Shown: positions 5,617 through 59,951, counted from the first letter of the stretch. The stretch: 64,000 bases of DNA from a virus (IMGVR_UViG_2698536484_000026); one strand, 5' to 3'. Made by a program: numbers and translations. The notes: a model not told the origin generated them from the sequence alone.

Positions 5617-5677
5617 TGATTGCCATACATAAAATCAAATGCAAAAATAGGTAATCACTTACCTATCGAGAAAGAAG

Positions 5678-6271
5678 ATGATTGCAGCCGAAAAAATCAA
5701 ACAGCGAAAGCGCGACAACTCTCTTCGTGACCTCTGGAGAACACCTGATTGGCTGTTTTCTGCCATTCAACGTTATCTTGGAGTGACATTTGATGTTGAC
5801 GTTGCCTGCAACAAGGACAACGCAAAGCTGCCTAATTTCATAGGCATTGAGCGTGATGCTTTGAAATCTGAATGGGGACAGCCAGGTACAATTGCCTTCC
5901 TCAATCCACCCTACTCCAAAATCTCCCCCTGGATTGATGCTGCTATACGTGAGCAGGCTCGCGGAGTTACAACAGTGATTCTAATTCCTCAATCCCTCGA
6001 TACAAAGTGGTATGAGCGTGCAACAGAGTATGCGAATGAGACGATTATTCTGTCTGGTGGCCGCGTAGCGTTTGTCGAGCCTGACGTCAATTTGGGTCAG
6101 GTAGAAGTAAACATCAACCCCGGTGGCAGTATGCTCGTTGTTTTTCGAGGATTCTGTCAGGACGCTGGGCACTCTATAAGCAAGATCCCTTTGGACGTCA
6201 TGAAAAGTCTGGGAGGGTATGATCCTGCGAATGTGGTCAGGAAAAAAAGACCATCAAAGAAGGCTGCTTAG
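5678..6271 (+). CDS. Phage Dam-like DNA N6-adenine methyltransferase
   Basis: DLWRTPDWLF and LNPPYS motifs. Confidence 0.7.
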   Translation: MIAAEKIKQRKRDNSLRDLWRTPDWLFSAIQRYLGVTFDVDVACNKDNAKLPNFIGIERDALKSEWGQPGTIAFLNPPYSKISPWIDAAIREQARGVTTVILIPQSLDTKWYERATEYANETIILSGGRVAFVEPDVNLGQVEVNINPGGSMLVVFRGFCQDAGHSISKIPLDVMKSLGGYDPANVVRKKRPSKKAA

Positions 6272-6292
6272 TTTGTTCTGGCGTCTGTAATT

Positions 6293-6351
6293 AGCCTGCT
6301 TCTGTATATATAAATAACTACATATTAATTATTAATATACGGAAGCAGGCT
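6293..6351. repeat. Large inverted-repeat element (copy 1 of a conserved element)
   Basis: Perfect 10-bp arms AGCCTGCTTC / GAAGCAGGCT around a 39-nt AT-rich loop containing CTGTATATATAAATAA; repeated at 37413-37461. Confidence 0.5.
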
Positions 6352-6456
6352 GTTTTGTATCAGAGACTCCAGACCTGAACATCACTACAGAATCCACTAG
6401 AACCCTTCCCAGACGCTTTAAAATCGATTTTATGAACCACTTTAAGGAAAACTAAC

Positions 6457-6687
6457 ATGCCATACCCGACCAATGTTGTTGCGCTCGTAGAGAGCGATTT
6501 TCTGGCTAAGGCTCGTGAAATGATGAAAGATCGCGAGCAGGCTTTCAACTTGTACGAATGGGCAATTAAGTGCTTGCATCTTGGGGAGCATCGCGAACTT
6601 GTTGAACAGCTTTTAGGTGAGTTGATCAACGAGGTGTTTGCCTTGAATGTTCAACTACATGGTCGAGAAAATAATCAATCGAAATGA
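6457..6687 (+). CDS. Hypothetical small protein
   Basis: ORF with RBS-like AAGGAAAA upstream. Confidence 0.35.
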   Translation: MPYPTNVVALVESDFLAKAREMMKDREQAFNLYEWAIKCLHLGEHRELVEQLLGELINEVFALNVQLHGRENNQSK

Positions 6688-7271
6688 TAGATAAGTACAA
6701 ACTATTCATAAGATGAATTGTAAGTGCTAAGATCTGATAGTTTCCAGTCGTAGACTGGAGACTCGACCTGATGGGTGGGGGTAAGCGTCACTGGCGTCAG
6801 GTTTAAAAAAGTTCACTACCAGCGTAGAACCGGTGCCGTTTAGGTGTCGGGGAAGGGGGAACCAAAGTGAGCGGAGACAAGGGTCACTTTATGATTGTCG
6901 AGTCTGGGGTGTTTCGAGAGGTTGAATCCAGTACTCCCCTTCATAAAGTGTGGGAAGATCTCGGTTCTGGGGTGCTGTCATCCATAACTTCCCAAGTCTA
7001 AGCTGGCAGTAGACTTAGACCATAACTTTTCAGGTTATGAAACGACCAGGTTGGTGAGGGATTTTTATACTCACCTCCCTGGGAGAGTATTACCTGAAAA
7101 GACAACCTCTCACTTCGTTCGAGGTGAACTTCACTCACTTCGTTCGTTCAGTTCAGGTTTATAAAAACCTGTTCTGGGAAGTAATTTGTTTATTTTAATA
7201 ATTATTAACACGCACGCGTGTGCGCACGCGCGAGGAAAAAAATCGGCGCGGCGCTTGATTCAGGAGTTTAT

Positions 7272-7865
7272 ATGACGACGAAGACACCAGCCCGATCGCA
7301 AGCAAAAACTCGCAAAAAAGCCAAAAACAAAAATTCTCCCCGCACCAATCCCACAACGCCTGTCGTAGAGTTCAATCCCCAGCTTAAAACCGTGAAAATC
7401 TTCAGTGATGGCTCTTGCCTTAAAAATCCGGGTGGCCCGGGCGGTTACGGTATCGTTCTTCAGTATCGTGGAGAGGAACGCGAGTTCTCAGATGGTTTTC
7501 ATAGCACCACCAATAACCGCATGGAGATGATGGGGGCACTTATCGGGCTGGAGCGTTTGAAATATCCATGCAACGTTATTTTACACTCTGATAGCCAGTA
7601 TCTGAAAAACGGCATGACACAGTGGATGAAATGGTGGAAACGCAATGGATGGATGACTTCTGACAAAAAACCGGTAAAGAATGTTGATCTGTGGAAGCGT
7701 CTGGATGAGGCCGCAAGTCGACATAATGTTCGCTGGAAGTGGGTTAAAGGTCACGCCGGGCATCGTGAAAATGAAATATGTGATCGACTCGCGAAGATCG
7801 CAGCTTTTTCAGCAGCAGATATGCCTCACAAGAAAGATATTGGTTTTGTTTATAACAAGCGGTAA
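7272..7865 (+). CDS. rnhA: Ribonuclease H (RNase HI-like) with basic N-terminal extension
   Basis: [52 protein letters not shown] match RNase HI. Confidence 0.75.
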
Positions 7866-8010
7866 GTAAGTGTTTACCTATCATTTTAAATCATGTATCT
7901 TATCGGCGTCAGGATGACAATGTGTCGGTAAGACACAGTTCCAGGATGGAACGAGAAAGGCGGCTGGCAATCGCCAGCCGCAACTCTTTCTGACACTGGA
8001 TGGAGTCCAC

Positions 8011-10227: not shown

Positions 10228-11913
10228 ATGAATACAGCCCTTTCTATCATCGACGATGCCAGCTCAAACACGGCTATCGACTATCGTCAGGAAATGAATG
10301 TCATCCACGAAATCGTGGCCGAGTGCGAGAAAGAGATCGCCTTCATGTATCAGGTACACGACTTCGTTTATGGCGACGAACGCCACAACATGATTAATCG
10401 CCTGCTGAGACTAAACCATCGACCAGATGAAGATCGCTCGCGTTTAAATCGAGGTTGGTTGGATAAAGTCGATCTGGAATGGGTGAAACAGAATATTTGG
10501 GCCGAGTACTGGAGGAAGGTCACGGACATGACTAACGTTTTGCTGATCATGCCAGCTTCCCGTCGAGATGAGTGGCGCGAGCAGTTTATAGAGGGCAAAC
10601 AGGAAGTCATCAAAACTGACAGAACCGGCTACCAGATGAAGGTTAAAGAGTTCGTTGGTGTACCGGAGTTCAAAGCAGAAACGGTCATACCCACGATGCT
10701 TAATTTGCTGAATGACAGGCACAAATATCTCTCTGAGCGCGTGTATGGCTTGTTTAAGGCGCTGAGTCCTGCGCACAAGACAAATAAGACAAACGGTTTC
10801 AGCGAGCGTCTGATAATCGCTGACTGCATTTCTGATTTCTGGCGGGACAGCGTTAGCGTGAACTATCGCAAAGAGGACTACATCGACGATCTGCGTGTCT
10901 TGCTTCATTTCTTCGCGCACAAAGAATTTATTACCATCAACCGCACTGCTGAGGTGCTATCAGCTGCGTATAGGGCAAACGACTGCCAGACCGGTGACTG
11001 GATGAACGTCGATGGAAATCTGATGCGCGTGAAGATGTTCAAGAACGGCAACGTTCACTTTGAAATACATCCTGACGTGGCCTGGAAGTTGAATGAGGTG
11101 CTGGCTTACAGTATGCCTGCTGCAATCCCCGCGCCATGCCGAACTGCGCCAAAAACACGGGCACCAAAGCAGTTCGGTTTAATCCAGAAGACGATCTCCG
11201 TGCCGGTTCGCACTGCGCTTCGTGACGGGCGATTGAGCAAAGACAAAGGCGTATGGTACTTCTCTGATTCAGCTCTCCAGAAGTCGCAGGTGGAAGAGCT
11301 TGAGCGCACACTTAGCTTCATTGGCGGCGTGCAGGAGAAAAAGCACTGGCAGTTCCCGTATGAGATCGGCCATACGCTAAATACGATTGTGGCTACCGGA
11401 TTAATACCGGATACAAAATCACACCAGTTCTACCCTACCCCACGCTTGATTGCTGAGTACGTTGCCAGAGCCACTGAATTGAAGCCTGGTGAGAAGCTGC
11501 TGGAGCCTCAAGCCGGACGTGGGGAGCTTCTGGCCTATATTAACGCCGATCTGGAAGATGTTACCTGCATAGAAATCGCACCTCTCTTCGCTGATATCCT
11601 GCGTGGAAAAGGGTATACGAACACGATTTGCTGCGACTTCATAAAGTGGTCTGAGGACAACGCAGGTTATCAGTTCGACAAAATCGTTATGAACCCGCCG
11701 TACTCGCTTGGTCGTCATAGAGAGCACACGATGGCTGCGCTGGGGCATCTGAAAGTCGGCGGGCGTCTTGTAGCAGTATTGCCGGGCACTGCGCCAATAC
11801 TGGACTGGATGACGATGGATAATTACGTTTATGCCAGAGGGAAGTCGTTTACCAACGAGTTTGAAGATACCGGGATCACAGTCAGCGTATACGTTTTCAA
11901 ACGCGTTAAATGA
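10228..11913 (+). CDS. Putative N6-adenine methyltransferase fused to a large N-terminal domain of unknown function
   Basis: C-terminal FYPTP, EPQAGRGELL and NPPYS motifs; N-terminal 380 aa unassigned. Confidence 0.6.
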   Translation: MNTALSIIDDASSNTAIDYRQEMNVIHEIVAECEKEIAFMYQVHDFVYGDERHNMINRLLRLNHRPDEDRSRLNRGWLDKVDLEWVKQNIWAEYWRKVTDMTNVLLIMPASRRDEWREQFIEGKQEVIKTDRTGYQMKVKEFVGVPEFKAETVIPTMLNLLNDRHKYLSERVYGLFKALSPAHKTNKTNGFSERLIIADCISDFWRDSVSVNYRKEDYIDDLRVLLHFFAHKEFITINRTAEVLSAAYRANDCQTGDWMNVDGNLMRVKMFKNGNVHFEIHPDVAWKLNEVLAYSMPAAIPAPCRTAPKTRAPKQFGLIQKTISVPVRTALRDGRLSKDKGVWYFSDSALQKSQVEELERTLSFIGGVQEKKHWQFPYEIGHTLNTIVATGLIPDTKSHQFYPTPRLIAEYVARATELKPGEKLLEPQAGRGELLAYINADLEDVTCIEIAPLFADILRGKGYTNTICCDFIKWSEDNAGYQFDKIVMNPPYSLGRHREHTMAALGHLKVGGRLVAVLPGTAPILDWMTMDNYVYARGKSFTNEFEDTGITVSVYVFKRVK

Positions 11914-11974
11914 TAGGTAAATACTTACTTAATTTGTGTAAGAATGTAGTAACTAAACGAGAAGAGAAAAACAC

Positions 11975-13059: not shown

Positions 13060-13178
13060 GCGCTACAAATCCTTCTGCATGAATAAATAAAGGCCATAAC
13101 TTATGGCCTTAAATAAATTGTTTTCTGCCTTTTCTTATTTGTGAAAATAACCACAACTAGAAAACAACGGAGTTAAGA

Positions 13179-17753: not shown

Positions 17754-18046
17754 TGTCCGTTTTTAACCAAATGTACCCACAATACCGCAACATCAGTGTC
17801 TTGCGAATTAAGATAGGATTTATAGAGACTATGTGCAAGTGCATAACTTTGTGGATAACTCGTAAAGGAAAAAGTGGTTTCCGCGGACATTAGTTCAGAC
17901 AAGGAGTCTGGGAAAGTCAATGGGAAGTAAAAATTTGTTAAAAATAACGTTTGTTGGAATTGTATATATTTATGCCTTTCAATAGTTAGCATCTTATTAA
18001 CATCTTTTTTAAGAGATAGAGTTCAAAAATATATAGCTTCAACATA

Positions 18047-18066
18047 TACTGTATGCATATACAGCA
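18047..18066 (+). promoter_or_regulatory. LexA (SOS) box
   Basis: TACTGTATGCATATACAGCA fits CTGT-N8-ACAG, 17 bp upstream of UmuD'-like start. Confidence 0.6.
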
Positions 18067-18082
18067 TTAAGAGGCGAGTATT

Positions 18083-18472
18083 ATGGGCTTCCCTTCTCCT
18101 GCGGCGGATTATGCTGAGAGCCGTATTTCTCTTGATCAGCAGATAATTAGACATCCTTCAGCGACCTACTTCATGAGGGCGGCTGATAGTCATCATCGTG
18201 AGGGAATATTGCAGGGTGCATTGCTGGTGGTCGATTCCTCACTGACTCCTGTTGATGGATCTCTTCTTGTATGTGCTCTGGATGGGGAATATCGCGTAAA
18301 AAGATACCGGAAGTATCCACGTCAGCATCTGGAGGATTTAAGAACTGGTAAGAAGGAAGCATTGCCAAAGGATGATGATGGATGCACGGGCAGCAATGCC
18401 GTGTTTGGTGTGATCACTCACATTATCAACGACGCAAGAAGTGGCGAGTTTGATGATTGTCCTGTGATGTAG
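18083..18472 (+). CDS. umuD: UmuD'-like S24 peptidase-fold protein, N-terminally truncated (P1 HumD-like); no umuC partner
   Basis: GFPSPAADY...HPSATYF...DS...VK aligns to UmuD from about residue 25 onward; in-frame stop 15 nt upstream fixes the start. Confidence 0.7.
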   Translation: MGFPSPAADYAESRISLDQQIIRHPSATYFMRAADSHHREGILQGALLVVDSSLTPVDGSLLVCALDGEYRVKRYRKYPRQHLEDLRTGKKEALPKDDDGCTGSNAVFGVITHIINDARSGEFDDCPVM

Positions 18473-18483
18473 GAGAACTGTTT

Positions 18484-18510
18484 AGGTGGTGCATTGCACC
18501 ACCTTTTTAT
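18484..18510 (+). terminator. Rho-independent terminator
   Basis: Perfect 9-bp stem aggtggtgc/gcaccacct followed by TTTTAT. Confidence 0.55.
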
Positions 18511-19610
18511 CACACTGCGCGGAATGCGATTTCGCCAGGTATTACTTCACCTTGCCAATACATTTGGGCAGCAACGCGATCTGCGAGGTCACGATAAATA
18601 GCCGTAAATTCGCTATCTGGACGACTAATAACGGTTGGTGTTCCGTTATCCAGATCTTCACGAAGAGAGATATGAAGTGGCATTTGGCCTAACAACTGCG
18701 TGTTGTATTTCTCGGCCAGTTTCTGTGCGCCACCGGTGCCAAAAATTGGCTCGTGATGACCGCAGTTACTGCAAATATGCACACTCATGTTTTCGACGAT
18801 ACCTAGTACCGGCACTTCGACTTTTTCGAACATCACAATGCCTTTCTTCGCATCGATCAGCGCGATGTCTTGCGGCGTAGTTACCACAACCGCACCAGTT
18901 ACAGGAATGTTCTGCGCCAGCGTCAATTGAATATCACCAGTGCCCGGCGGCATATCGAGAACGAGATAGTCCAGATCAGGCCACAGTGTTTCCTGCAACA
19001 TCTGCATCAACGCCTTGCTGGCCATCGGTCCACGCCACACCATTGCATTGTCGTCGGTGACCAGATAACCAATAGAGTTGGTTGCCAGGCCATGAGACAT
19101 GATAGGTGCCATGTGAGTACCGTCCGGTGAGGTTGGACGTTGGTTTTCCGCGCCCAGCATGGTTGGAATTGATGGACCATAGATATCGGCATCCAAAATA
19201 CCAACTTTCGCACCTTCAGCAGCCAAAGCCAGTGCCAAGTTTACTGCTGTGGACGATTTGCCTACACCGCCCTTGCCTGAGCTTACGGCGATAATATTCT
19301 TAACACCATTAATGCCTGGTTGGTTTTTGACGCGCTTAAGCGTGGCAATGTTGTACGACAGCTTCCAGTCAATAGCCTTTGCGCCAGTGATACGGAGCAG
19401 ATCACCACTACATTGCTCTTTCAGGTCTTCAAAAGGCTTATTCCACACGAAAGGCATGATTAGTTCGACATGCAGTGTGTCATCCATCAACGCAACATGG
19501 TGTAACGCTTTAAGCGTAGTCAGGTTGTGTTTCAGGGTTGGGTGCTGAAAATTAGCCAGCGTACCGGCTACCATTGCTCTCAGGGCATCCGGCGATTTGG
19601 ACTCGCTCAT
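18510..19610 (-). CDS. apbC: Iron-sulfur cluster carrier ATPase ApbC/Mrp
   Basis: Near full-length match to enterobacterial Mrp: AVSSGKGGVGKSSTAVNLALALA, MPPGTGD, C-terminal CSNCGH. Confidence 0.9.
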   Translation of the reverse strand: MSESKSPDALRAMVAGTLANFQHPTLKHNLTTLKALHHVALMDDTLHVELIMPFVWNKPFEDLKEQCSGDLLRITGAKAIDWKLSYNIATLKRVKNQPGINGVKNIIAVSSGKGGVGKSSTAVNLALALAAEGAKVGILDADIYGPSIPTMLGAENQRPTSPDGTHMAPIMSHGLATNSIGYLVTDDNAMVWRGPMASKALMQMLQETLWPDLDYLVLDMPPGTGDIQLTLAQNIPVTGAVVVTTPQDIALIDAKKGIVMFEKVEVPVLGIVENMSVHICSNCGHHEPIFGTGGAQKLAEKYNTQLLGQMPLHISLREDLDNGTPTVISRPDSEFTAIYRDLADRVAAQMYWQGEVIPGEIAFRAV

Positions 19611-19767
19611 CCCGTCTCCTTTATTTTAATTTGCGCAATTGTCGCCTTGTAGTGTACTCCAGCTGCGACATTTAATCATTTATGAGAAATGCTGTTATCA
19701 CATGGCAGACATAAGGCCATTTTGTTACTATCAAGCCCCTTTTCACTACAAAGAAGTAATGCCTACT

Positions 19768-21801
19768 ATGACCCAAGTCGCGAAGAAAATTCTGGTGACG
19801 TGCGCGCTGCCGTACGCTAACGGCTCAATCCACCTCGGCCATATGCTGGAGCACATCCAGGCTGATGTCTGGGTTCGTTACCAGCGAATGCGCGGCCACG
19901 AGGTTAATTTCATCTGTGCCGACGATGCCCACGGTACGCCGATCATGCTGAAAGCACAGCAACTTGGTATCACACCGGAGCAGATGATTGGCGAAATGAG
20001 TCAGGAACACCAGACTGATTTCGCAGGCTTTAACATCAGCTATGACAACTATCACTCGACGCACAGCGAAGAGAACCGTCAGTTGTCTGAGCTTATCTAT
20101 ACTCGCCTGAAAGAGAACGGTTTTATTAAAAATCGCACTATCTCTCAGTTGTACGACCCGGAAAAAGGCATGTTCCTGCCGGATCGTTTTGTGAAAGGCA
20201 CCTGCCCGAAATGTAAAGCGCCAGATCAATACGGCGATAACTGTGAAGTTTGCGGCGCGACCTACAGCCCGACTGAACTGATCGAGCCGAAATCGGTGGT
20301 TTCTGGTGCTACCCCGGTAATGCGTGATTCTGAACACTTCTTCTTTGATCTGCCCTCTTTCAGCGAAATGTTGCAGGCATGGACCCGCAGCGGTGCGTTG
20401 CAGGAGCAGGTGGCAAACAAAATGCAGGAGTGGTTTGAATCTGGTCTGCAACAGTGGGATATCTCCCGCGACGCACCTTACTTCGGTTTTGAAATTCCGA
20501 ACGCGCCGGGTAAATATTTCTACGTCTGGCTGGACGCACCGATTGGCTACATGGGTTCCTTCAAGAATCTGTGCGACAAGCGCGGCGACACTACCAGCTT
20601 CGATGAATACTGGAAGAAAGACTCCACCGCCGAGCTGTACCACTTCATCGGTAAAGATATCGTTTACTTCCACAGCCTGTTCTGGCCTGCCATGCTGGAA
20701 GGCAGCAACTTCCGCAAGCCGACCAACCTGTTTGTTCACGGCTATGTGACGGTGAACGGCGCGAAGATGTCCAAGTCTCGCGGCACCTTTATTAAAGCCA
20801 GCACCTGGTTGAATCATTTTGACGCTGACAGCCTGCGTTACTACTACACTGCGAAACTCTCTTCGCGCATTGATGATATCGATCTCAACCTGGAGGATTT
20901 CGTTCAGCGTGTGAATGCCGATATCGTGAACAAAGTGGTTAACCTGGCGTCCCGTAACGCTGGCTTTATCAATAAGCGTTTTGACGGTGTGCTGGCAAGC
21001 GAGCTGGCTGACCCGCAGTTGTACAAAACCTTCACTGATGCCGCTGAAGTGATTGGTGAAGCGTGGGAAAGCCGCGAATTTGGTAAAGCTATCCGTGAAA
21101 TCATGGCACTGGCTGACCTGGCTAACCGCTATGTCGACGAGCAGGCTCCTTGGGTAGTCGCAAAACAGGAAGGTCGCGATGCTGACCTGCAGGCGATTTG
21201 CTCAATGGGCATCAACCTGTTCCGCGTGCTGATGACTTACCTGAAACCGGTACTGCCGAAACTGACAGAACGTGCGGAAGCATTCCTGAATACGGAACTG
21301 ACCTGGGATGGCATCCAGCAACCGCTGCTGGGCCATAAAGTGAATCCGTTCAAAGCACTGTATAACCGTATCGACATGAAACAGGTGGAAGCACTGGTGG
21401 AAGCGTCTAAAGAAGAAGTGAAAGCTACTGCCGCGCCAGTTACTGGCCCGCTGGCAGACGACCCGATTCAGGAAACCATCACCTTTGACGACTTTGCCAA
21501 AGTTGACCTGCGCGTGGCACTGATCGAAAACGCAGAGTTTGTTGAAGGTTCTGACAAACTGCTGCGCCTGACGCTGGATCTCGGCGGTGAAAAACGCAAT
21601 GTCTTCTCAGGCATCCGTTCTGCTTATCCAGACCCACAGGCACTGATTGGTCGTCACACCATTATGGTGGCTAACCTGGCTCCGCGTAAGATGCGCTTCG
21701 GCATCTCCGAAGGTATGGTGATGGCTGCTGGCCCCGGCGGGAAAGATATCTTCCTGTTAAGCCCGGATGCTGGTGCTAAACCTGGCCACCAGGTTAAGTA
21801 A
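19768..21801 (+). CDS. metG: Methionine--tRNA ligase
   Basis: [26 protein letters not shown] (HIGH), KMSKS, CPKC...C zinc knuckles, C-terminal tRNA-binding domain; 677 aa from ATG 19768. Confidence 0.95.
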
Positions 21802-21962: not shown

Positions 21963-22262
21963 ATGTTGAACATTACCCAAGCCTACCAGGTGGCATTGAT
22001 CAGTTCATCTCATACATCAGAGGAAGATGCTCGCCGATTCATGATCGCAAGCAATGAGCTGGATTGGGTTTCACAAATTGATGGCGGTTGTATTGTCCAC
22101 GCCGGGTTACAGGATGATGTCTGGAAAGACGACTTGCGTCGATATGGTATATCCGAAGGCGCGATTGCTAACATTCAGAAAGTACTTGATGTAGGCTTTG
22201 ACTCTGTACATTTTGATTGTGGTGCGCCGATCGTTGAAGGGCTTGAGTGCTGGTGTTGGTAG
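21963..22262 (+). CDS. Hypothetical protein
   Basis: Preceded by conserved promoter-like element and AAGAAAACAAATTGTTT motif. Confidence 0.4.
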   Translation: MLNITQAYQVALISSSHTSEEDARRFMIASNELDWVSQIDGGCIVHAGLQDDVWKDDLRRYGISEGAIANIQKVLDVGFDSVHFDCGAPIVEGLECWCW

Positions 22263-22393
22263 AGTGTATAAGCGGATCAATGAGTTACGGAAACAGTTAA
22301 TAATGAGGAGCTTGTAATAAGCTGTATACCCTAGAAAAGCTAGACTAGGGAATAAAATGACGTGAAACTGGGCGAGACAGTAAATAATTCCGA

Positions 22394-25980: not shown

Positions 25981-26106
25981 TAATGTGCAAGTGGCAATTA
26001 GTCGACAGTACGACAGCCCCGCCATCCTTACGGGGCTTTTTTGTATTGTAAGTACATACTTACGATCATAGAATATAAAAATAACCAATACACTACGGAG
26101 AGTGAA

Positions 26107-34125: not shown

Positions 34126-34189
34126 AAACCTCTTTCCTTAGTGCCTTTTGTATGTTATTTGGCTATTATAATAAGTAAGTGATTACTTA

Positions 34190-34888
34190 GTGGATTGTAG
34201 CAATAAAATGGATGTAAAAATCACGATTTTGCAGGTTGATGTTGCCAACCTTCGCCCGAATACCTGGAACACCAATTCGGTTGGTGCGCAGAATTTTGAA
34301 AAACTGAAAGGTTCTATCGAAAAATTGGGCTTTTTTAAGCCAATTTTGGCTCGTGAACTTGAAGATGGATTTTTTGAAATCCTCGGCGGCGAACATCGCT
34401 GGCGTGCCGCTATTGAGCAAGGAATTTCAACGGTTCCGGTGCTTTCTGTGGGCAAAATTAGCGATGTCGTAGCTAAACAGATGTCACTGGTGGACAACGA
34501 GCGATACGGTGAAGACGACCAAATCGCATTGCAACGCTTCATTGAAGAAATTCAGTCAGAACTTGACTATCAACTGTCTGAAATCGCCCCGTATGACGAC
34601 GAAATCTCGATGGTTTTAGCAAAAGAGGCGGCAATCGACCTTGAAGCACTGGAGGCGTTGTCTCGTGGTAGTGATGAGCCTGTCGATACCGACAAACGAG
34701 AGAAAACCGAACGTGTGGGTGCGGAACATCAGACCATGCGCTTCAAAGTAACTTTCGATGCGTCAGATCGTGTTGCAGAAACCATAAAAAACATCATCAA
34801 AGAGCAGGCTATTAACACCGGTAATGAAATGGAGAACGCTGGTGAGGCTCTGGTGTGGCTGGTCGACTACTACAAGGAGCGTATGTAA
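34190..34888 (+). CDS. ParB N-terminal domain (ParB/Srx fold) protein
   Basis: FEILGGEHRWRAAIEQGISTVPVL. Confidence 0.6.
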   Translation: MDCSNKMDVKITILQVDVANLRPNTWNTNSVGAQNFEKLKGSIEKLGFFKPILARELEDGFFEILGGEHRWRAAIEQGISTVPVLSVGKISDVVAKQMSLVDNERYGEDDQIALQRFIEEIQSELDYQLSEIAPYDDEISMVLAKEAAIDLEALEALSRGSDEPVDTDKREKTERVGAEHQTMRFKVTFDASDRVAETIKNIIKEQAINTGNEMENAGEALVWLVDYYKERM

Positions 34889-35556
34889 TGACCAAAAAGT
34901 TTGAAATCGTATATCGCGACCCGGCAGATCTTATTCCCTATGAGATGAATGCCAAAAAGCATGATGAACAGCAGATCCGAGATCTGGCCGCAGCCATTAA
35001 AAAGCGCGGATTTGACCAGCCAATTACGGTCGATAAGAACGACGTAATTATTACTGGCCACGGCCGCCGTGAGGCTGCAATTTTTGCTGGACTTGAGCGC
35101 GTACCGGTTATTGTTCGCGATGATCTCAGTGATGACGAGGTTCGTGCGAAGCGCCTTGAAGATAACCGACTTGCCAGCATTGATTACGATGCAATTAAGC
35201 TACAGAAAGAGCTTGAGTCGCTTGTTCTGGACGATATCGAGGTTTTCGGCTTTGAAGAGCGTGAGTTGAATGTTCTCGTTGGCAGTATGACAGAAGAAAT
35301 GGACACCGACTCGCTAGTTATCGATCTTGGCGAAGAAACTAAACGACAGAAGGATGAACACACCGAGATCAGTCGTGAAGTTGCAGCGGAAGAAGTACGT
35401 GTTGTCGACGTATTGGGCTTTAAAACGCTCCCTGCTGGCTCTGCCATTGTTGTTGGTGATTTGCTTGCCCACATGGAAGAAATGACGGGAGAAAGCGGGG
35501 TAGACGCATTTGTGGCATATGCGGAGAAGATCTCTTCTGGGGAGATGGCTGCATGA
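34888..35556 (+). CDS. ParB N-terminal domain protein (second tandem copy)
   Basis: ITGHGRREAAIFAGLERVPVIV; ATG overlaps previous stop. Confidence 0.6.
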   Translation: MTKKFEIVYRDPADLIPYEMNAKKHDEQQIRDLAAAIKKRGFDQPITVDKNDVIITGHGRREAAIFAGLERVPVIVRDDLSDDEVRAKRLEDNRLASIDYDAIKLQKELESLVLDDIEVFGFEERELNVLVGSMTEEMDTDSLVIDLGEETKRQKDEHTEISREVAAEEVRVVDVLGFKTLPAGSAIVVGDLLAHMEEMTGESGVDAFVAYAEKISSGEMAA

Positions 35557-37381: not shown

Positions 37382-37412
37382 TCGGTCTGGGAGCTTATTT
37401 AAAGACCTGCAT

Positions 37413-37461
37413 CTGTATATATAAATAATAAGTAACTTATTAAATATATACGGAAGCAGGC
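37413..37461. repeat. Conserved element, copy 2 (CTGTATATATAAATAA...TATACGGAAGCAGGCT)
   Basis: About 50-bp match to 6302-6351; both followed by CCAGACCT within 30 bp. Confidence 0.5.
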
Positions 37462-38209: not shown

Positions 38210-39465
38210 TGGCAATCCCGTCCTCGCTCAGTCTTGTGCAACTGCATTCTGGACAGATGAAAGTCTTCCAGTCTCCGCATCGATTTAAAGTTGTTTGTGC
38301 TGGTCGACGCTGGGGAAAATCCCGGTTGTCGATCTCCACTATTATTCGTGCGGCGGCAAAGGAAAAAAAGCAAAGGGTCTGGTATGTCGCTCCTACTTAC
38401 CAGATGGCTCGCCAGATTTTGTGGGACGATCTACAGGAAGTTCTGCCTCGTAAGTGGGTTAGGAAAAAGAACGACACCACGATGACAATCGTGTTGAAGA
38501 ACGGTTCGGAGATCGCCCTCAAAGGTGCTGATAAGCCTGACACTCTGCGCGGCGTAGCGTTGCATTTTGTAGTGCTTGATGAATTTCAGGATATGAAGGC
38601 TGACACCTGGTACAAGGTGTTACGACCTACTCTTTCATCGACACGCGGCGGTGCACTGATCATTGGTACGCCAAAAGGCTTCTCGGAATTTCACAAACTG
38701 TGGACTATAGGCCAGAACGTAGAGCTGCAAAGAAAGGGACAGTGGAAGAGCTGGCAGTTTGTAACTGCCGATTCTCCGTTTGTACCTACGGCGGAAATTG
38801 AAGCTGCTAAGAACGATATGGACCCCAAATCGTTCGCTCAGGAGTACCTGGCCAGCTTTGAGAACATGTCCGGGCGCGTTTACTACCCGTTCGATCGTAA
38901 CGTGCATGTAAAACCGCTTCAGTTCAACCCTCGGTTGCCTATATGGGTAGGGCAGGACTTCAACATTGACCCGATGTCTTCAGTAATTTTGCAACCTCAG
39001 CCAAATGGTGAGCTATGGGCAATTGATGAATTGGTGCTCTTTTCCTCTAACACGGCAGAAGTTTGTGATGAGCTTGAGAGACGCTTCTGGCGCTGGAAAT
39101 CACAGGTAACGGTATTTCCAGATCCGGCAGGTGCTTATCGCCAACATGCTCGTGGGGAGTCTGACGTAGACATATTCAAAGAGAAGGGATTCTTACGTGT
39201 CGATTATTCGAAAAAGCACCCGCCAATTGCGGATCGTGTTAATGCTGTTAACCGAATGCTGATGTCCGCATCTGGAGATATCCGGCTGTATATCGATCCG
39301 AAGTGCAAGCATTTGATTGATTCACTGGAAAAAGTCATCTACAAGCCTGGAACACGAGATATGGATAAGACGGGTGGCATTGAGCATAGTGCAGACGCAT
39401 TGGGCTATCCAGTACATCGTAGGTATCCAGTCAAAAACCGTGTTATTCTTGGTGGTTCTAGATAG
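38209..39465 (+). CDS. Terminase large subunit
   Basis: Walker A CAGRRWGKS and Walker B VVLDEFQDM; upstream of portal. Confidence 0.8.
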   Translation: MAIPSSLSLVQLHSGQMKVFQSPHRFKVVCAGRRWGKSRLSISTIIRAAAKEKKQRVWYVAPTYQMARQILWDDLQEVLPRKWVRKKNDTTMTIVLKNGSEIALKGADKPDTLRGVALHFVVLDEFQDMKADTWYKVLRPTLSSTRGGALIIGTPKGFSEFHKLWTIGQNVELQRKGQWKSWQFVTADSPFVPTAEIEAAKNDMDPKSFAQEYLASFENMSGRVYYPFDRNVHVKPLQFNPRLPIWVGQDFNIDPMSSVILQPQPNGELWAIDELVLFSSNTAEVCDELERRFWRWKSQVTVFPDPAGAYRQHARGESDVDIFKEKGFLRVDYSKKHPPIADRVNAVNRMLMSASGDIRLYIDPKCKHLIDSLEKVIYKPGTRDMDKTGGIEHSADALGYPVHRRYPVKNRVILGGSR

Positions 39466-39491
39466 GTAAGTAATTACCTAAGGTTATTCAA

Positions 39492-41066
39492 ATGGAATTG
39501 AACGACAAACAAATTAAGGATCTGGTGGCGCGACGCCACCCGGAATACGAAAAGAAAAAAGAACATTGGGACTTCCTCGCCAGCACTTACGCTGGCGGGC
39601 GTGGTTGGTTTACAGACAATATCTTTCGTTACTTTAAAGAGGGAGATCAGGAGTTTAAGGAGCGAGTTGAACGTGCTTATCGCTTCAACCACACTCGTGA
39701 GGTGGTAAACCTCATCAACAAATATCTCTTTAAAGAAGACATTCATAGAAATATCGAAGAGGCACCAGAGCAGATCCGCAATTTCTGGAAACGTGCGACT
39801 CGCCAGAATGCCTCTATTGACTCATTTATGGCCGCTATTGATTTGCAGTCGTCTATTTACGGTCGCATATGGGTTGTTGTCGATAGCACGATGAGTGGTG
39901 ATGTTGAGTCAGTAGCTGACGAGAAAAAGAAAGATGCTCGCGCCTACGCCTACTGGATTTCACCTCAGCAAATGCTGGATGTGGCATGGGACGACGACGG
40001 GAATATGTTGTGGGCGTTAATTGTGGAAGTCGCTCGTGATGACGCAGATCCTTTTACTTCTACAGGTCAGGAATACCAACGTTATCGTCTGTGGACACAA
40101 AACGAGTGGTATCTGTTCCGTGAGGAAGTGAAGAAGGGCGCTGGTGGAGCAGGTCGCCGTCAGGCAAAAGTTATTTTAGAGGATAGCGGTGAGCATAATC
40201 TCGGCGTAGTTCCTGTGTTTCCTGTTGATTGTATTGGAGAAAGTGAATCACCGTATTTCAGCCCATCGTTGATCGATGATATCGCTTATCTTGATCGTGC
40301 GGTTGCAAACTATCTGTCAAACCTTGATGCCATTATTCAGGATCAGACATTTAGCCAGTTGGCTATACCGGTACAGTCGCTTTTACCTGGTGATGAAAAC
40401 CACACTAAAGTGCTTGAAATGGGCACAAAGCGAGTCTTCACCTACGATTCTGAAGGTGGAAACCAGCCGTTTTATCTGTCACCAGACCCGAAACAAGCTC
40501 AGATGATCATCACTACGATTAAGACGGTGATTAACGAAATCTACCATTCAGTTGGTGTAGCTGGTGAGCGAACGAAGCAGGACAACGCACAGGGAATCGA
40601 TAATTCATCTGGTGCCGCAAAAATGTATGACTTCCAGCGTGTAAATAGCTTGCTTGTCACAAAAGCAGAGCGTCTGGAAAGGGCTGAACGCCAAATCATG
40701 CTACTGGTTGCGAAATGGATGGGGGTAGATCTGGACGAAGACCACTCTTTAATTGCGTATCCAGAAAGTTTCGATATTCGTGGCCTTACTGATGAATTTT
40801 CTGTTGCCGAGAAACTGTCATTACTTCAGGCACCGGACTCTGTACGTCGTCACCAGATGGAAATGCTTATTGAGAAGATTTTCCCGAACATTACTGAGGC
40901 GATGAAAAAGGAATTTGATAAAGATCTCTTGAATTTTCCTCCAAAAAATGATCTAAACACCCTTGAAAATAAGTCGGTGCTTACTTATGATCGTGGTGCA
41001 GCCCAAGAAAGCGGGCAAGATCAACCCCGAGGGAATGGGGACTCATCTACTCAAGAGAACGAGTGA
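39492..41066 (+). CDS. Portal protein
   Basis: 524-aa ORF immediately after TerL; acidic C-terminus; assignment by position and size. Confidence 0.65.
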   Translation: MELNDKQIKDLVARRHPEYEKKKEHWDFLASTYAGGRGWFTDNIFRYFKEGDQEFKERVERAYRFNHTREVVNLINKYLFKEDIHRNIEEAPEQIRNFWKRATRQNASIDSFMAAIDLQSSIYGRIWVVVDSTMSGDVESVADEKKKDARAYAYWISPQQMLDVAWDDDGNMLWALIVEVARDDADPFTSTGQEYQRYRLWTQNEWYLFREEVKKGAGGAGRRQAKVILEDSGEHNLGVVPVFPVDCIGESESPYFSPSLIDDIAYLDRAVANYLSNLDAIIQDQTFSQLAIPVQSLLPGDENHTKVLEMGTKRVFTYDSEGGNQPFYLSPDPKQAQMIITTIKTVINEIYHSVGVAGERTKQDNAQGIDNSSGAAKMYDFQRVNSLLVTKAERLERAERQIMLLVAKWMGVDLDEDHSLIAYPESFDIRGLTDEFSVAEKLSLLQAPDSVRRHQMEMLIEKIFPNITEAMKKEFDKDLLNFPPKNDLNTLENKSVLTYDRGAAQESGQDQPRGNGDSSTQENE

Positions 41067-42876: not shown

Positions 42877-42908
42877 TCAGTGAAGTAGATAGGTAATTAT
42901 CTATGTTA

Positions 42909-42937
42909 AAGGGTGGGCTATACGCCCACCCTTTTTG
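42909..42937 (+). terminator. Rho-independent terminator after capsid gene
   Basis: gggtgggc...gcccaccc stem followed by TTTTT. Confidence 0.55.
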
Positions 42938-46455: not shown

Positions 46456-46529
46456 GTTAATAGGTAAGCATATACTTACTATTAGCGCAATGAATGCGTA
46501 GAATTAACGGAAAAAGGAGTTTTCCATCA

Positions 46530-52962: not shown

Positions 52963-53011
52963 GTATCTGGATAAGTAAGTACTAATTTACTATCATTGTG
53001 GCGCTGACAGG

Positions 53012-53743
53012 ATGTTAGCGCCTACTTATTTCAAGGATGAAACAATGGGAATTAAAGCTGATATTCAGAGCTTATCTCCCTCTGCACTCATTGAGTTGTT
53101 CGTACTGGATATGTCGAACACAACTTCAGGGGGGAAGTTATTCTTCCACGCCGGAACAAACGAACTGATGCAACCGGTCGTCTGGCAAGGAGTGACATAC
53201 GAGCCGTGGCCAATCAAAGCATCAGGCTTTGACAAAACTGGCCAGGGAACGTTGCCACGTCCAAAAATTCAGGTATCGAACTTTGCCGGAACCGTCTCTG
53301 CGGAAGTTCAGGCGAACGACGATCTTGTTGGCTGCCGCATTATTCGCAAGATGACGCTGGCTCGCTTCCTCGATGCCGTTAATTTTAAAGACGGCAACCC
53401 AACAGCAGATCCAAACCAACATTTCCCGGATGAAATGTGGTTTATCGAACAGAAAACTCTCGAAACTCATCAGGTTGTCGAGTTTGAATTGTCCAGTGTG
53501 TTCGATTTGATGGGGGTGCAACTGCCGTATCGTCAGATCATTAAAAACACCTGCCCGTGGAAATACCGAGGGCCAGAATGCGGCTATACCGGTCCATATT
53601 TCGACAAAAATAACCAGCAGACGTCTATGTCTGGTGCTGATTACTGCACAAAACGTTATGACGCCTGTAATGCGCGTCGGAATTATTTTGCCAACGGAGT
53701 GATCCATTTTGGCGGGTTTATTGGAGCTACGCGATATGGGTAA
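53012..53743 (+). CDS. Minor tail protein (lambda gpL-like)
   Basis: WQG.TY.P.PI..SGF, ARFLDAVNF, NTCPWKYRGPECGY, FGGF align with lambda L. Confidence 0.8.
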   Translation: MLAPTYFKDETMGIKADIQSLSPSALIELFVLDMSNTTSGGKLFFHAGTNELMQPVVWQGVTYEPWPIKASGFDKTGQGTLPRPKIQVSNFAGTVSAEVQANDDLVGCRIIRKMTLARFLDAVNFKDGNPTADPNQHFPDEMWFIEQKTLETHQVVEFELSSVFDLMGVQLPYRQIIKNTCPWKYRGPECGYTGPYFDKNNQQTSMSGADYCTKRYDACNARRNYFANGVIHFGGFIGATRYG

Positions 53744-55114: not shown

Positions 55115-55125
55115 ACAAGGATTTT

Positions 55126-58100: not shown

Positions 58101-59859
58101 TGAAGGTGATGCTGCAAACGCTAAACAACTGGAAGTGTTGCAGTCAACGGTAGAGGAAAGCTCCGCTGCCGTTGAAGAAATGAAAAAGACGGTTGCAGAG
58201 GTCGATCGTGCCAGTGCAGAACTGACTACGAACATTGAGGCTTTGGCCAAAACAAATATTGACCTGGCTCTTCGTCAAGATGAAGACCAGCACAAGCAGA
58301 TGGTCAATAACGCGAAGATCGCAACAACACAGAAAACCTTTGCTGATGATATGTCTGCAATGGCCACGAAGGTTGAGGAAATTCGCGTAGAAATTGGCGA
58401 AGACATTAAGGCCAGTATTCTGGAAGAGTCCACCGCTCGTGCCGATGGCGATGAAGCGTTGGCAAAGCGTGTCACTCAGCTGCAATCTAAGTTTGAAGGA
58501 GATATCAGCGCGGCGATTAGTACAGAGCAGGAGGCTCGTACATCTGCCGATGAAGCTCTGACGACACAGATCACTCAGCTTGAGTCGAAAGTAAGCAACG
58601 ATATCGTCGCAGCTATTAAGGAAGAGCAAGAAGCCCGAGCAACGGAAGATTCGGCTCTGGCAAGCCAGATCACCCAACTTCAGGCAAAGGTTGATGATGA
58701 TATTTCTGCTGCAATACGTAGTGAGCAGGAGGCCCGAGCAAGCGGGGACTCTGCGTTAGCCAAACAAATAAACCAGCTTCAGTCAAAGGTTGACGGTGAT
58801 ATATCCGCTGCCATCACTCAGGAGCAGGAGGCCAGAGCAAGTGCTGACCAGGCGCTCTCACGAGAAATTAACAGCCTGCGAGCACAAACCGGAACTGATA
58901 TTGCCGCAGCGGTTGCTGTAGAGACAAAGGCAAGGACTGATGCCGATAGTGCATTGTCCACTCAGATTTCGTCTCTTACAGCAAAAGCTAATGATCTCGA
59001 GGCATCTCTTGCCAGAGAAACAACGGCTCGTGCTGATGGTGATACCGCTTTAACAAAAGAGGTTTCAAGTTTAAAAGCACAGACAGCGAAAGATATTAGT
59101 GCGGCCGTTGCAGTTGAAACGCAGGCTCGAACTGATGCTGACTCGGCGTTGTCGTCTCAGATCACCAAGCTGACCTCTCAATACAAAGAGGATATTAAAG
59201 CGGCTGTAGCAACCGAAACGAAAACGCGTACAGAGCAAGATGCTGCATTGGCGACTCAAATCACAAACTTAGAGTCTCAAACGGCAGCCAACATTTCCGC
59301 GGCGGTAACAACTGAAACGACAGCGAGAACGCAGGCAGATAATGCTCTGAGTGGGCGAATCGATACTCTGAAAGCAGAGGTGGATGGAAATACCGCGACA
59401 ATTCAACAGCAGGCAACAGCTATTGCTGATACCAACAAAAAAGTGTCAACCGCGTGGACGTTGAAAATGGAGACTTCAACGAGCGGAGGGCAGAAGTATG
59501 TTGCCGGTATTGCGCTTGGTATTGACACCACTGGGCTATCTCAGTTTTTGGTTCAGGCGGACAGGTTTGGTTTGGTCAACTCTGTTAACGGGAAGATCAC
59601 AACGCCATTTGTTATCGAAAACAGTATCGCCTATATGAATGGAGCGTATATCAAGGATGGCACAATCACCAATGCAAAAGTAGGCGATCTGCAATCTACC
59701 AATTTTGTTAGCGGTAGATCTGGATGGCGATTCGGCAAAAATGGAACGCTTGAGATCAACGGTAATAGCGGCGGCAATGGGCGACTGGTCATAAATGGTC
59801 AGCGGATTGACGTTTATGACGATAACAACGTCCTACGAGTAAGAATTGGCCTTCTGTAA
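55126..59859 (+). CDS. Tail tip/host specificity protein (lambda gpJ-like) with C-terminal tandem coiled-coil repeats
   Basis: YPNSVLVGLKVNSEQFGS, GVWDGTFK, FGCTSRGQAHRVGLWLL, GQKYVAGIALGIDTTGLSQFLV align with lambda J. Confidence 0.85.
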   Translation: MNMEQFKKKKLPLFIAGAGGKKSSKSSSRTPVEADDTVNSRAMAAILDLLGEGVIGGLVNGARSIFIDDLPIVNEDGSSNFSGITWDFRDGSQDQTPMSGFDFVETPKSVNIQLKKTHYVTVSIDNDEADRVRVIMKFPSLRSIDKKTGDTNGTTVEYKFQIANGDSTFVDVVAEGEKSVGIKLTAKKTGVYYRSYELKLPKPGRAYKVRVVRITDDNSSQYLYNDTWVDSIGEIVDTPMNYPNSVLVGLKVNSEQFGSTMPSRSYLVRGLKIRVPSNYNESSNTYAGVWDGTFKLLSSSNPAWILFDLLTNARYGLGQYVSESMIDLGQLYQIGRYCDEEVDDGFGGKEKRFAINTQITSRQDAYRLIQDIAGAFRGMVFWAGGMVNIMQDSPSDPVMMFTNSNVKDGLFTYKGSARKDRPSVALVTYNNKEDGYKQNIEYVEDQDAMRRYGERKTEVVAFGCTSRGQAHRVGLWLLYTARMESDVITFTAGLDASFLMPGETVLIQNKYRAGKRNSGRIVAFTKNSVTLDAPVSLAKGGCFIRILNQEGKIVERDVLETGENITKVTFSKALSSAETPVLNGVWTITEPDLEPMRVRIVNIAQGETPGSFDITAVENNPSKYEAIDNGATLIPQNTTVLDPTYSKPSNLQITEGTYLSSPGNLSVKLTATWEGKSPEYWISWRRSDENNVSNWQSARVTEEQYEIVNVAENGRYDFQLYAVSFNGKKTEIISTVYQVLGTMTPPDAPTSLTAVGDYRNVILNWVNPDSVDLDHINVYASQTNNLDTAKLIAESASTTFTHAGLGDSETWYYWVRASNKRGMLSPPNSNLGTEATTRDVLSFLTGKITSSELGQALLEDINSKASQEAVDELNEHINQSVESLEGAVNDVKEDIAELDKQFSDNLADFEIKFNERSDALENAQTELKGEVSATIDKVNEAFEKIDATDAAIVEIENTVSEHDKALANTVEAIKAARDEAAALIAKESEARVEGDAANAKQLEVLQSTVEESSAAVEEMKKTVAEVDRASAELTTNIEALAKTNIDLALRQDEDQHKQMVNNAKIATTQKTFADDMSAMATKVEEIRVEIGEDIKASILEESTARADGDEALAKRVTQLQSKFEGDISAAISTEQEARTSADEALTTQITQLESKVSNDIVAAIKEEQEARATEDSALASQITQLQAKVDDDISAAIRSEQEARASGDSALAKQINQLQSKVDGDISAAITQEQEARASADQALSREINSLRAQTGTDIAAAVAVETKARTDADSALSTQISSLTAKANDLEASLARETTARADGDTALTKEVSSLKAQTAKDISAAVAVETQARTDADSALSSQITKLTSQYKEDIKAAVATETKTRTEQDAALATQITNLESQTAANISAAVTTETTARTQADNALSGRIDTLKAEVDGNTATIQQQATAIADTNKKVSTAWTLKMETSTSGGQKYVAGIALGIDTTGLSQFLVQADRFGLVNSVNGKITTPFVIENSIAYMNGAYIKDGTITNAKVGDLQSTNFVSGRSGWRFGKNGTLEINGNSGGNGRLVINGQRIDVYDDNNVLRVRIGLL

Positions 59860-59951
59860 TGTAGAAAAAAATATTTATATCGGTAAAAATAAGTAGGTAC
59901 ATACTTAATGGTGGGCAAGGATAGCCCACCAAATCAAGGAGCATATTCAAC

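Follow-up and report, generated by a model that had tools for sequence, protein, structure and literature searches.

The operators (OB) of KorB on plasmid RK2 and the dispersed SopB centromeres of the phage-plasmid N15 are present as copies scattered over their replicon. Here we describe a family of short palindromes dispersed over a viral DNA sequence of 64,000 nt (IMGVR_UViG_2698536484_000026, analysed over its whole length and hereafter called the window), which is an SSU5-type phage-plasmid ~97% identical to Escherichia phage Cyrano, which E. coli LF82 carries as a plasmid prophage. Several repeated-site systems offer points of comparison. Stoperators of cluster A mycobacteriophages keep lytic genes silent through a block to elongation (PMC9283540), and D29, a repressor-less derivative, keeps its stoperators (PMC5712189). 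In phage P1, a 9-bp inverted repeat bound by Lpa is part of each of the 11 late promoters (PMC10695390). The host nucleoid-occlusion factor SlmA recognises the SlmA binding sequence (SBS) GTGAGTACTCAC, with a 12-bp palindrome, GTRAGYRCTYAC, that requires G, T, A and G at half positions 1, 2, 4 and 5 and takes any purine at position 3 and any pyrimidine at position 6; the core GTAAGTACTTAC, the variant with A at position 3, is bound with a Kd of ~60 nM, equal to that of the consensus (PMC3020112).

The palindromes of the window form a statistically real family, are conserved at the same positions across lineages, show no RNA covariation and match the recognition code of SlmA and TetR-type proteins. 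On the strength of sequence comparison, we see about an even chance that they are DNA operators for a two-fold symmetric helix-turn-helix protein and would form an operator/roadblock array that silences or insulates lytic units.

A single 20-bp palindrome family is over-represented in the window

All nine inverted repeats that a first-pass annotation of the sequence had listed are present. The repeat placed at 34181–34201 was corrected to 34171–34190, and the one given from 42887 is best registered at 42885–42904. They belong to one family with the consensus ATARGTAAGTACTTACYTAT. In the dominant form found in Cyrano, SSU5 and the Klebsiella element pJN2-26, the 8-bp arms lie exactly 4 bp apart and the central four bases are mostly GTAC, which makes the site a continuous 20-bp palindrome. 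The earlier description of two arms around a free loop was therefore abandoned, since at consensus level the whole 20 bp, centre included, is palindromic. Each half-site consists of two tetramers offset by 4 bp plus the centre (xTAx GTAA GY).

To quantify the enrichment, we counted the octamer ATAGGTAA, which occurs 8 times on the two strands against 1.0 expected from dinucleotide-preserving shuffles, with none of 100 shuffles reaching 8. A symmetrised 20-bp weight matrix, trained on SSU5, Cyrano and pJN2-26 only, found 15 sites scoring at least 14 bits in the window, compared with 0.0 expected in 30 first-order Markov simulations. Each of the three training genomes contained 27 sites at a threshold of at least 12 bits and 26 at a threshold of at least 14 bits, and phage lambda, used as a control, gave a single match of 12.2 bits in 48.5 kb. 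Strong over-representation was seen by shuffles, simulations and control alike, ruling out chance or AT-richness as its cause. The search also added four members to the original list (27–46, 6687–6706, 26044–26063 and 40969–40988). In IMG/VR the exact consensus is confined to SSU5-like contigs, with 38 of 39 loci matching SSU5-type genomes along 57% or more of their length and one along 17%. A literature search returned no description of the motif, nor of any link between SlmA and a phage-plasmid.

The Cyrano alignment spans the entire window at 84–99% identity (mostly 95–99%), with several segments replaced, and window position 37444 corresponds to Cyrano position 1. Between 38000 and 46000 the window is 99.3% identical to Cyrano, 81.5% to Salmonella phage SSU5 and ~79% to Klebsiella elements. 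The plus strand carries nearly all of the genes, whose identities were taken over from the Cyrano annotation. Among 72,556 plasmid records searched, ~1,000 belong to the SSU5-type group, whose hosts and plasmids include Klebsiella, E. coli, Enterobacter, Salmonella (pHCM2), Yersinia pestis (pMT1) and Acinetobacter, with resistance genes on some. Homologues of TerL (~60% identity) were further found on 100–110 kb plasmids of Acinetobacter (196 records) and Cupriavidus, in which synteny is retained.

Sites lie at the borders of genes

With crude gene calls, 12 of the 15 sites were intergenic, where the intergenic share of the window is 10.4% (binomial P = 6e-10). By the Cyrano annotation, two of the three apparently coding sites (27 and 26044) resulted from over-extended start codons, and correcting these brings the count to 14 of 15, although the consensus interrupts two of the three reading frames with stop codons on each strand and part of the exclusion from genes is thereby forced. 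The claim that the palindromes stand at gene junctions and are not equally frequent in coding sequence was in this way upheld. The sole intragenic site, at 40969 in the portal gene, is conserved in all relatives. The further claim that most sites lie between late structural genes did not survive, as the late region holds only 6 of the 13 firm sites, about half; in complete genomes, sites also precede replication, recombination and nucleotide-metabolism genes.

Two classes of placement were seen. In the first, the site begins at −8 to +30 nt relative to the upstream stop codon, and in the second it ends 1–16 nt ahead of the next start codon, at the distal end of a 150–180 nt spacer. Some long spacers have one site at either end, and several sites end just 10–16 nt short of the next ATG. 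A terminator hairpin abuts the downstream side of sites 42885, 52971 and 59889, and a terminator precedes sites 26044 and SSU5 55695.

The stop codons are common to the consensus of every lineage, and a site often overlaps the upstream stop codon, as would be expected if the palindromes were by-product elements with no binding protein, that is, multi-frame stop cassettes or recombination linkers comparable to T4-type promoter stem-loops. We hold this to be very unlikely, because the lineages also share bases that take no part in the stop codons (G5, G9 and the symmetric C's), the identical 20-mer is a TetR operator elsewhere (see below), and the mosaic breakpoints between the window and Cyrano fall away from the sites. 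The same breakpoints led us to reject recombination boundaries as an explanation and do not match the sites as targets of a homing endonuclease, an earlier suggestion for which no support was found.

Promoter-like elements overlap some sites at variable spacing

A few sites lie between the two hexamers of a sigma-70-like promoter, as in TTGAAA-N17-TATGAT at 40963–40991, which with a match of 10/12 is the best such element in the late region and lies ~100 nt upstream of the scaffold/capsid genes. This portal-internal element may be an internal promoter controlled by the palindrome. At other sites, extended −10-like elements follow downstream at differing distances, and the flanks just outside the palindrome (ATR...YAT) are nearly symmetric.

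These elements bring activator-dependent lytic promoters of the P1 Lpa type into consideration, in which the palindrome would replace the −35 element and be bound by an activator encoded on the element, and its right end would supply the TAT of a TATNAT −10. The motif centre AAGTACTT is similar to the annotated P1 box AAGTTACTT, TATYAT stands at positions 18–23 in many sites, three of the few sigma-70-like matches of the late region coincide with sites, and highly expressed genes (portal, tail, fibre and holin) are preceded by sites. The geometry nevertheless fits poorly. Flank A/T is 54%/41% on the left and 59%/59% on the right, nearly symmetric even though the genes almost all face one way, and a −10 at positions 18–23 would, at gaps of only 10–16 nt, have transcription begin no earlier than the Shine-Dalgarno sequence. 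Other candidate −10 elements stand at variable positions (28–33 and 33–38), which would be intolerable for an activator, and a terminator lies within 4–10 nt after several sites. In addition, tblastn with P1 Lpa found no homologue in four genomes, the best match having an E value of about 1. Variable spacing, symmetric flanks and the 10–16 nt gaps argue against a fixed-geometry activator site like the Lpa box, and with no Lpa homologue and no room for a leader we set this type of promoter aside as improbable. Late transcript starts, proposed earlier, are likewise unlikely as a general reading, given these short gaps to the ATG and the several sites directly before a terminator hairpin. Promoter-like elements that overlap sites at variable spacing suit a repressor better than an activator.

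The arms show no sign of RNA pairing

To distinguish a DNA site from an RNA hairpin, we compared the arms of 81 sites at ten paired positions. Watson–Crick pair counts equalled the expectation under independence at all 10 positions. At the variable pair 4/17, the counts were A-T 24, G-C 16, A.C 16 and G.T 13, with A.C as common as G.T, and on average the arms were complementary at only 6.4–7.1 of 10 positions. Between orthologous sites, changes in one arm were uncompensated in the other. No Rfam family matched the sites, and they do not have the make-up of intrinsic terminators, as the arms are AT-rich and there is no T tract. These results speak against the RNA processing hairpins of the first-pass annotation and indicate, by the lack of a pairing signal and the independence of the arms, that each half-site is selected for its own sequence, as for a two-fold symmetric DNA-binding protein.

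An RNA role would have been attractive on other grounds, with the palindromes acting as stem-loops in polycistronic mRNAs, either as processing or stabilising hairpins or as translational operators for an FljA-like protein. Many sites lie just upstream of ribosome-binding sites, and the element carries a strong FljA-family gene at 29883–30407 on the minus strand (PF03614, “repressor of phase-1 flagellin”, E = 5e-81), a core gene of enterobacterial SSU5-type elements (831 plasmid records). FljA-type proteins block translation of fliC mRNA (PMC2652032). However, the centre of the motif is itself palindromic, which is not required of a loop, the FljA-like protein is only 34% identical in pFF979_1 while the arms there are unchanged, and its gene was not detected in the Acinetobacter plasmids that keep the motif. 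The last two points disfavour the FljA-like protein as the binder, and the pair statistics together with the Rfam result rule out RNA hairpins, so that we give an RNA function hardly any credence.

The motif matches the recognition code of SlmA and TetR-type proteins

The core of the phage consensus, GTAAGTACTTAC, satisfies the SlmA 12-mer rule exactly. Among the individual window sites, none fits without a mismatch, 6 depart from the rule at one base and 11 of 15 at no more than two, and the validated sites SBS12 and SBS17 have two core mismatches each. Exact SlmA 12-mers occur 3 times in SSU5 and 6 times in pJN2-26 (100 kb, against 0.1 expected). Applied in the other direction, the phage matrix gave 12.4 bits for SBScons, AAGTAAGTGAGCGCTCACTTACGT, and 11.6 bits for SBS17, both aligned in one register (sequences from PMC4423959), and −8.4 bits for SBS12, where a random 20-mer reaches 12 bits with a probability of about 5e-6. 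The enterobacterial motif matches the SlmA binding site at consensus level, and SlmA may bind it. E. coli K-12 carries slmA, and the recognition helix of SlmA is reported to be conserved in Salmonella, Klebsiella and Enterobacter.

The same sequence was then found outside the phage-plasmids. Across one representative genome per bacterial species, the exact 20-mer ATAAGTAAGTACTTACTTAT occurs 13 times, always as a singleton, in bacteria ranging from Planctomycetota to Streptomyces and in GC content from 30 to 75%. In six unrelated bacteria (a planctomycete, a deltaproteobacterium, a member of Nitrospirae, one of Solibacteraceae, a Streptomyces and an uncultured bacterium) it lies 2–18 nt upstream of a TetR_N (Pfam) gene, and because of this placement we identify it as a TetR-type operator. 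As an observation in its own right, this operator is unusually conserved across phyla and has SlmA-like specificity.

Comparison of lineages pointed to the same architecture. At the same junctions, Acinetobacter relatives have the 20-bp palindrome ATTAGTAAGCGCTTACTAAT (32 sites in 100 kb) and Cupriavidus relatives the 20-bp palindrome GTCAGTCAGCGCTGACTGAC (12 sites in 37 kb versus 2.3 expected), and in pFF979_1, of a divergent Klebsiella lineage, the arms ATAAGTAA...TTACTTAT are retained around a variable centre. Positions T2, G5, T6, A8 and G9 are invariant across lineages and include the four bases that SlmA requires; the positions that differ between lineages, 7 and 10, are those that SlmA tolerates. 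In Cupriavidus both tetramers changed in parallel (GTCA GTCA), which fits two identical reading heads 4 bp apart, as in a dimer of dimers. These variants show the element and its presumptive binder evolving together, with which an element-encoded and a host-encoded binder would both be compatible, and the enterobacterial, Acinetobacter and Cupriavidus forms constitute a natural experiment for finding the binder through co-variation.

The match to SlmA also opens a reading in which the sites do not control transcription at all and instead recruit SlmA, giving a kind of plasmid occlusion. FtsZ antagonist would then be densely concentrated on each plasmid copy and would stop septation over unsegregated copies, and on induction hundreds of genome copies would draw SlmA off the chromosome and block host division. 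An E. coli cell contains 24–52 SBS and 300–400 molecules of SlmA (PMC4423959), SlmA is delocalised and Z rings are blocked when a multicopy plasmid carries SBS (PMC4117426), and Cyrano is maintained at ~5.5 copies per cell (PMC9928086). The equal affinity of SlmA for the phage-type core, the near-matches in the window at the level of validated sites, the excess of exact 12-mers in pJN2-26 and the lack of any TetR-like protein encoded by the enterobacterial elements searched are all in its favour. It accords less well with the persistence of an altered motif in the Acinetobacter and Cupriavidus relatives, the Cupriavidus variant having C at SBS position 3, where purines are reported to be accepted. 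Sites of pFF979_1 often lack the G at SBS position 5, which in the phage motif is the least conserved core base even though the outer TA is strongly conserved, and the window itself holds no exact 12-mer. Moreover, chromosomal SBS are mostly intragenic, with 2 of 24 intergenic (PMC5519180), unlike the sites of the phage-plasmid.

Weighing these points, we regard SlmA recruitment as possible but doubtful, and only tentatively suggest that the ~27 predicted strong SlmA sites per element could amount to a protein-free hijack of nucleoid occlusion. If this were so, the element would match the entire chromosome in number of sites with 2% of the DNA, most of the 300–400 SlmA molecules would already be contested by a few plasmid copies, and replication after induction would strip the chromosome of SlmA. 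The element could thereby control host division, or avoid septum closure, without encoding a division inhibitor. The match to the SlmA site suggests an unexpected, testable link, a possible exploitation of host nucleoid occlusion by a mobile element.

Candidate binding proteins

The first-pass annotation had recommended looking for a cognate regulator, which is a sensible lead. Host SlmA, one candidate binder, is the sole protein for which a matching specificity has been demonstrated. Among the proteins of the element itself, ParB-like protein 1 appears to be the best candidate (Table 1). It is one of two ParB_N proteins, paralogues in the same operon, that are conserved in all lineages, and a site lies just upstream of this operon in each of them. 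ParB-like protein 1 aligns to the structures of Spo0J (over residues 7–154), ParB and Noc, has a GGEHRWRAA box, and is distributed across genera in step with TerL, Acinetobacter included. Its AlphaFold model (pLDDT 39) is too low for use and allowed no helix-turn-helix to be confirmed, poor quality that follows from all 120 listed homologues being at least 85% identical. ParB-like protein 2 gave weak matches to ParB and KorB structures and is conserved in the Acinetobacter and Cupriavidus relatives. The consensus ATARGTAAGTACTTACYTAT is unlike the parS and OB sequences. It is also unlike the Noc site ATTTCCCGGGAAAT (PMC3020112).

Lysogens express the XRE repressor gene that adjoins the integrase, and a core site with unusual flanks, TGGTAAGTRCTTACCGATATTACA, lies ~30 nt upstream of this gene (Cyrano 42596–42625, pJN2-26 40499–40520), conserved between the E. 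coli and Klebsiella elements. None of the small neighbouring proteins was assigned as a regulator by PHROGs or Pfam scans.

An operator/roadblock array as the favoured reading

We favour an array of operators and roadblocks, with ~27 copies per genome of 100–110 kb placed at the borders of transcription units, either at the upstream stop codon or just before the next ribosome-binding site. The half-site architecture is that of an SlmA/TetR-type operator, which would be bound by a dimer of dimers. Occupied sites would occlude overlapping promoters and elsewhere block elongation read-through, and the co-directional lytic genes would in this way be kept silent, with insulation from those few genes that are active while the element is a plasmid, by a mode of action akin to that of L5-type mycobacteriophage stoperators or RK2 KorB operators.

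This reading is supported by the retention of sites at orthologous junctions while the surrounding spacer diverges. At the TerL/portal junction, for instance, seven aligned genomes keep the palindrome but differ in both the length and the bases of the spacer that leads to the portal ATG. Most of the genes that Cyrano lysogens express (PMC9928086) are in stretches devoid of sites, and one site is located 41 nt after the expressed par operon. SlmA bound to a strong SBS can repress a reporter (PMC5519180). If correct, the site array would give a handle on how a near-unidirectional element of 100 kb stays silent as a plasmid.

Several points weigh against it. A hidden Markov model (HMM) built from SlmA and the six TetR proteins, used with a working positive control, found SlmA at 1e-61 and no open reading frame of the TetR family in the enterobacterial phage-plasmid genomes searched (the window, Cyrano, SSU5, pJN2-26 and part of pFF979_1), so that an element-encoded TetR repressor was rejected. 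The one TetR gene of the Acinetobacter relative, nemR, belongs to an accessory cargo island for aldehyde detoxification and has no motif upstream. The XRE repressor is a possible but weak candidate, with just 56% identity between elements of E. coli and Klebsiella whose motif is the same, and it is absent from SSU5, which nevertheless keeps its sites. SlmA is constitutive and cannot alone be a switch between lysis and lysogeny. Furthermore, an intrinsic terminator comes immediately after several sites and would seem to make a roadblock there redundant, and the association of lysogenic expression with site-free stretches would be equally expected if the sites were lytic promoters.

Catalogue of sites

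The 15 matrix sites and the two ParB-like genes are collected in Table 1. Two of the 15, at 6310 and 37421, are doubtful members.

Table 1. Palindromic sites of the window and the two ParB-like genes.
Feature	Position	Strand	Sequence	Context	Score	Orthologous sites and remarks
Site	27..46		ATGAATAAGTGGTTACTTAT	Upstream of thymidylate synthase (ThyX) gene; in Cyrano the MazG/ThyX intergenic region has a site on either side, this being the second	17.7 bits	Cyrano 72599, SSU5 72511, pJN2-26 9789, pFF979_1 10614
Site	5647..5666		ATAGGTAATCACTTACCTAT	11 nt upstream of adenine methyltransferase ATG	26.2 bits; one mismatch to SlmA 12-mer rule	Conserved in Cyrano, SSU5, pJN2-26, pFF979_1
Site (weaker)	6687..6706		ATAGATAAGTACAAACTATT	Begins at stop codon of small gene	15.6 bits	SSU5 78709, ATCGGTAAGTACTTACCATT
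Site	7862..7881		GTAAGTAAGTGTTTACCTAT	Overlaps RNase H gene stop codon	24.1 bits	SSU5 79904, pJN2-26 16842, pFF979_1 17889
Site	11913..11932		ATAGGTAAATACTTACTTAA	At stop of DUF4942 methyltransferase gene, followed by extended −10-like TGTAAGAAT	25.7 bits	SSU5 84178, pJN2-26 20935
Site	26044..26063		TATTGTAAGTACATACTTAC	Right after terminator hairpin (26013–26039), upstream of small uncharacterised gene	14.6 bits; one mismatch to SlmA 12-mer	SSU5 93165, pJN2-26 28031
Site	34171..34190		ATAAGTAAGTGATTACTTAG	Divergent region between helicase gene (−) and ParB-like operon (+)	20.4 bits	Position occupied by a site in every lineage examined, including Acinetobacter and Cupriavidus
Site	39462..39481		ATAGGTAAGTAATTACCTAA	Fills 26-nt TerL/portal junction; overlaps TerL stop and portal Shine-Dalgarno	25.9 bits	
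Site	40969..40988		ATAAGTCGGTGCTTACTTAT	Inside portal gene, 78 nt before its end; within TTGAAA-N17-TATGAT	21.3 bits	Identical position in Cyrano, SSU5, pJN2-26, pFF979_1
Site (degenerate)	42885..42904		GTAGATAGGTAATTATCTAT	After major capsid gene, then terminator (42908–42934)	19.4 bits	pJN2-26 44026, perfect consensus
Site	46460..46482		ATAGGTAAGCATATACTTAC(TAT)	Between tail-completion gene and Ig-domain tail protein gene (CYRAN_12, probably the major tail protein); insertion shifts right arm	21.6 bits	Cyrano 9018, SSU5 9067, pJN2-26 47136, Acinetobacter 87122
Site	52971..52993		ATAAGTAAGTACTAATTTAC(TAT)	Between tail genes M and L, then hairpin 53000–53022	22.8 bits	SSU5 15589, pJN2-26 53621
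Site	59889..59908		ATAAGTAGGTACATACTTAA	Between J gene and tail-fibre gene; abuts GC-rich hairpin 59909–59931	22.8 bits	Cyrano 22448, SSU5 21937
Doubtful site	6310..6329			AT-rich centre of long inverted repeat CCTGCTTCTGTATAT...ATATACGGAAGCAGG (6295–6349)	19.0 bits; 4 core 12-mer mismatches	
Doubtful site	37421..37440			Centre of second copy of long inverted repeat (37406–37460), where the Cyrano record begins	15.7 bits; 5 core mismatches	
ParB-like protein 1	34208..34888	+			Pfam ParB_N, E = 3e-13	
ParB-like protein 2	34888..35556	+			Pfam ParB_N, E = 1.5e-8	

Other repeats and genes of the element

The long inverted repeat around the two doubtful members consists of CCTGCWTCTGTATAT, ~25 AT-rich bases and ATATACGGAAGCAGG, and is present in three copies per genome in Cyrano, SSU5 and pJN2-26. 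Its copy at 37406–37460 sits upstream of the small terminase gene, and the repeat could be a packaging, origin or recombination site.

A second motif, AGAAAACAA, often lengthened to AAAACAAnTTGTTT, occurs 11 times on the plus strand (8757, 9486, 10200, 13159, 21934, 23768, 24459, 25642, 27309, 29915 and 37496) versus 0.9 expected, and on the minus strand at 13118, 21893, 26555, 26790 and 32545. It is usually preceded by a −10-like gATAAT and lies ~15–45 nt upstream of start codons. The motif is concentrated in the accessory/early region (8.7–30 kb), much of which has no 20-bp palindrome, and may be an early promoter with an operator or a leader hairpin.

A LexA-box-like palindrome, ATACTGTATGCATATACAGCAT, is located at 18046–18067, just upstream of a UmuD-like S24 peptidase gene (18083–18472), the same layout as humD in phage P1. 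The minus-strand gene at 18510–19610, among those expressed in lysogens, is annotated “MinD” in Cyrano, but its Pfam assignment is an Mrp/NBP35-type P-loop ATPase (PF10609, E = 2e-102), not MinD. A methionyl-tRNA synthetase gene, named from the Cyrano annotation, follows at 19639–21801 on the plus strand. The stretch 22253–23647 has no homology to Cyrano and contains a motif-like ATAAGTAAGACCTATAAGCTTACTA at 23153, inside a long open reading frame.

Comparison with known systems

Together with the KorB operators of RK2, the closest functional counterpart of the proposed array is the set of stoperators in cluster A mycobacteriophages (L5, Bxb1 and D29), which likewise comprises two to three dozen copies of a repressor site genome-wide, in short intergenic gaps at gene starts and stops (here 27 per genome, with 14 of 15 window sites intergenic). 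SSU5, which keeps its sites without the XRE repressor, resembles D29 in this respect. Stoperators differ in being asymmetric 13-bp sites that are oriented with transcription and bound by a monomeric repressor, whereas the present sites are 20-bp palindromes with nearly symmetric flanks.

The late promoters of P1 share a conserved inverted repeat in the place of the −35 element and its recurrence ahead of many late operons of a phage-plasmid. The P1 repeat, however, is 9 bp long with a central base, lies further from the −10, and is found in 11 copies at late genes only, and the geometry seen here is incompatible with the leaders of several downstream genes.

KorB operators of RK2, Noc sites of B. 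subtilis and SopB sites of N15 are palindromic, dispersed sites of ParB-family proteins that affect transcription or division and segregation, and the two ParB-like genes of our element form an operon directly preceded by a site. Its site sequence is unrelated to parS, OB and the Noc-binding sites, and its ParB-like genes have no adjacent ParA.

In sequence, the phage sites resemble the SBS of E. coli and other gamma-proteobacteria, with which they have in common the 12-bp palindromic core GTRAGYRCTYAC, outer tetramers offset by 4 bp, a dimer-of-dimers architecture and tens of dispersed copies. They differ in lying on a phage-plasmid at roughly 50–100 times the chromosomal density, almost all intergenic, in having A rather than G as the outermost base and only a weakly conserved G at SBS position 5, and in that SlmA binding is here a prediction.

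Autoregulatory operators of TetR genes share the exact 20-mer ATAAGTAAGTACTTACTTAT and are single-copy beside the regulator gene; the phage-plasmid has ~27 copies, and the enterobacterial elements searched carry no TetR gene. Dispersed operator arrays are a known kind of system, and what appears from these comparisons to be new is a palindromic array of the SlmA/TetR type on a phage-plasmid that has no TetR gene of its own.

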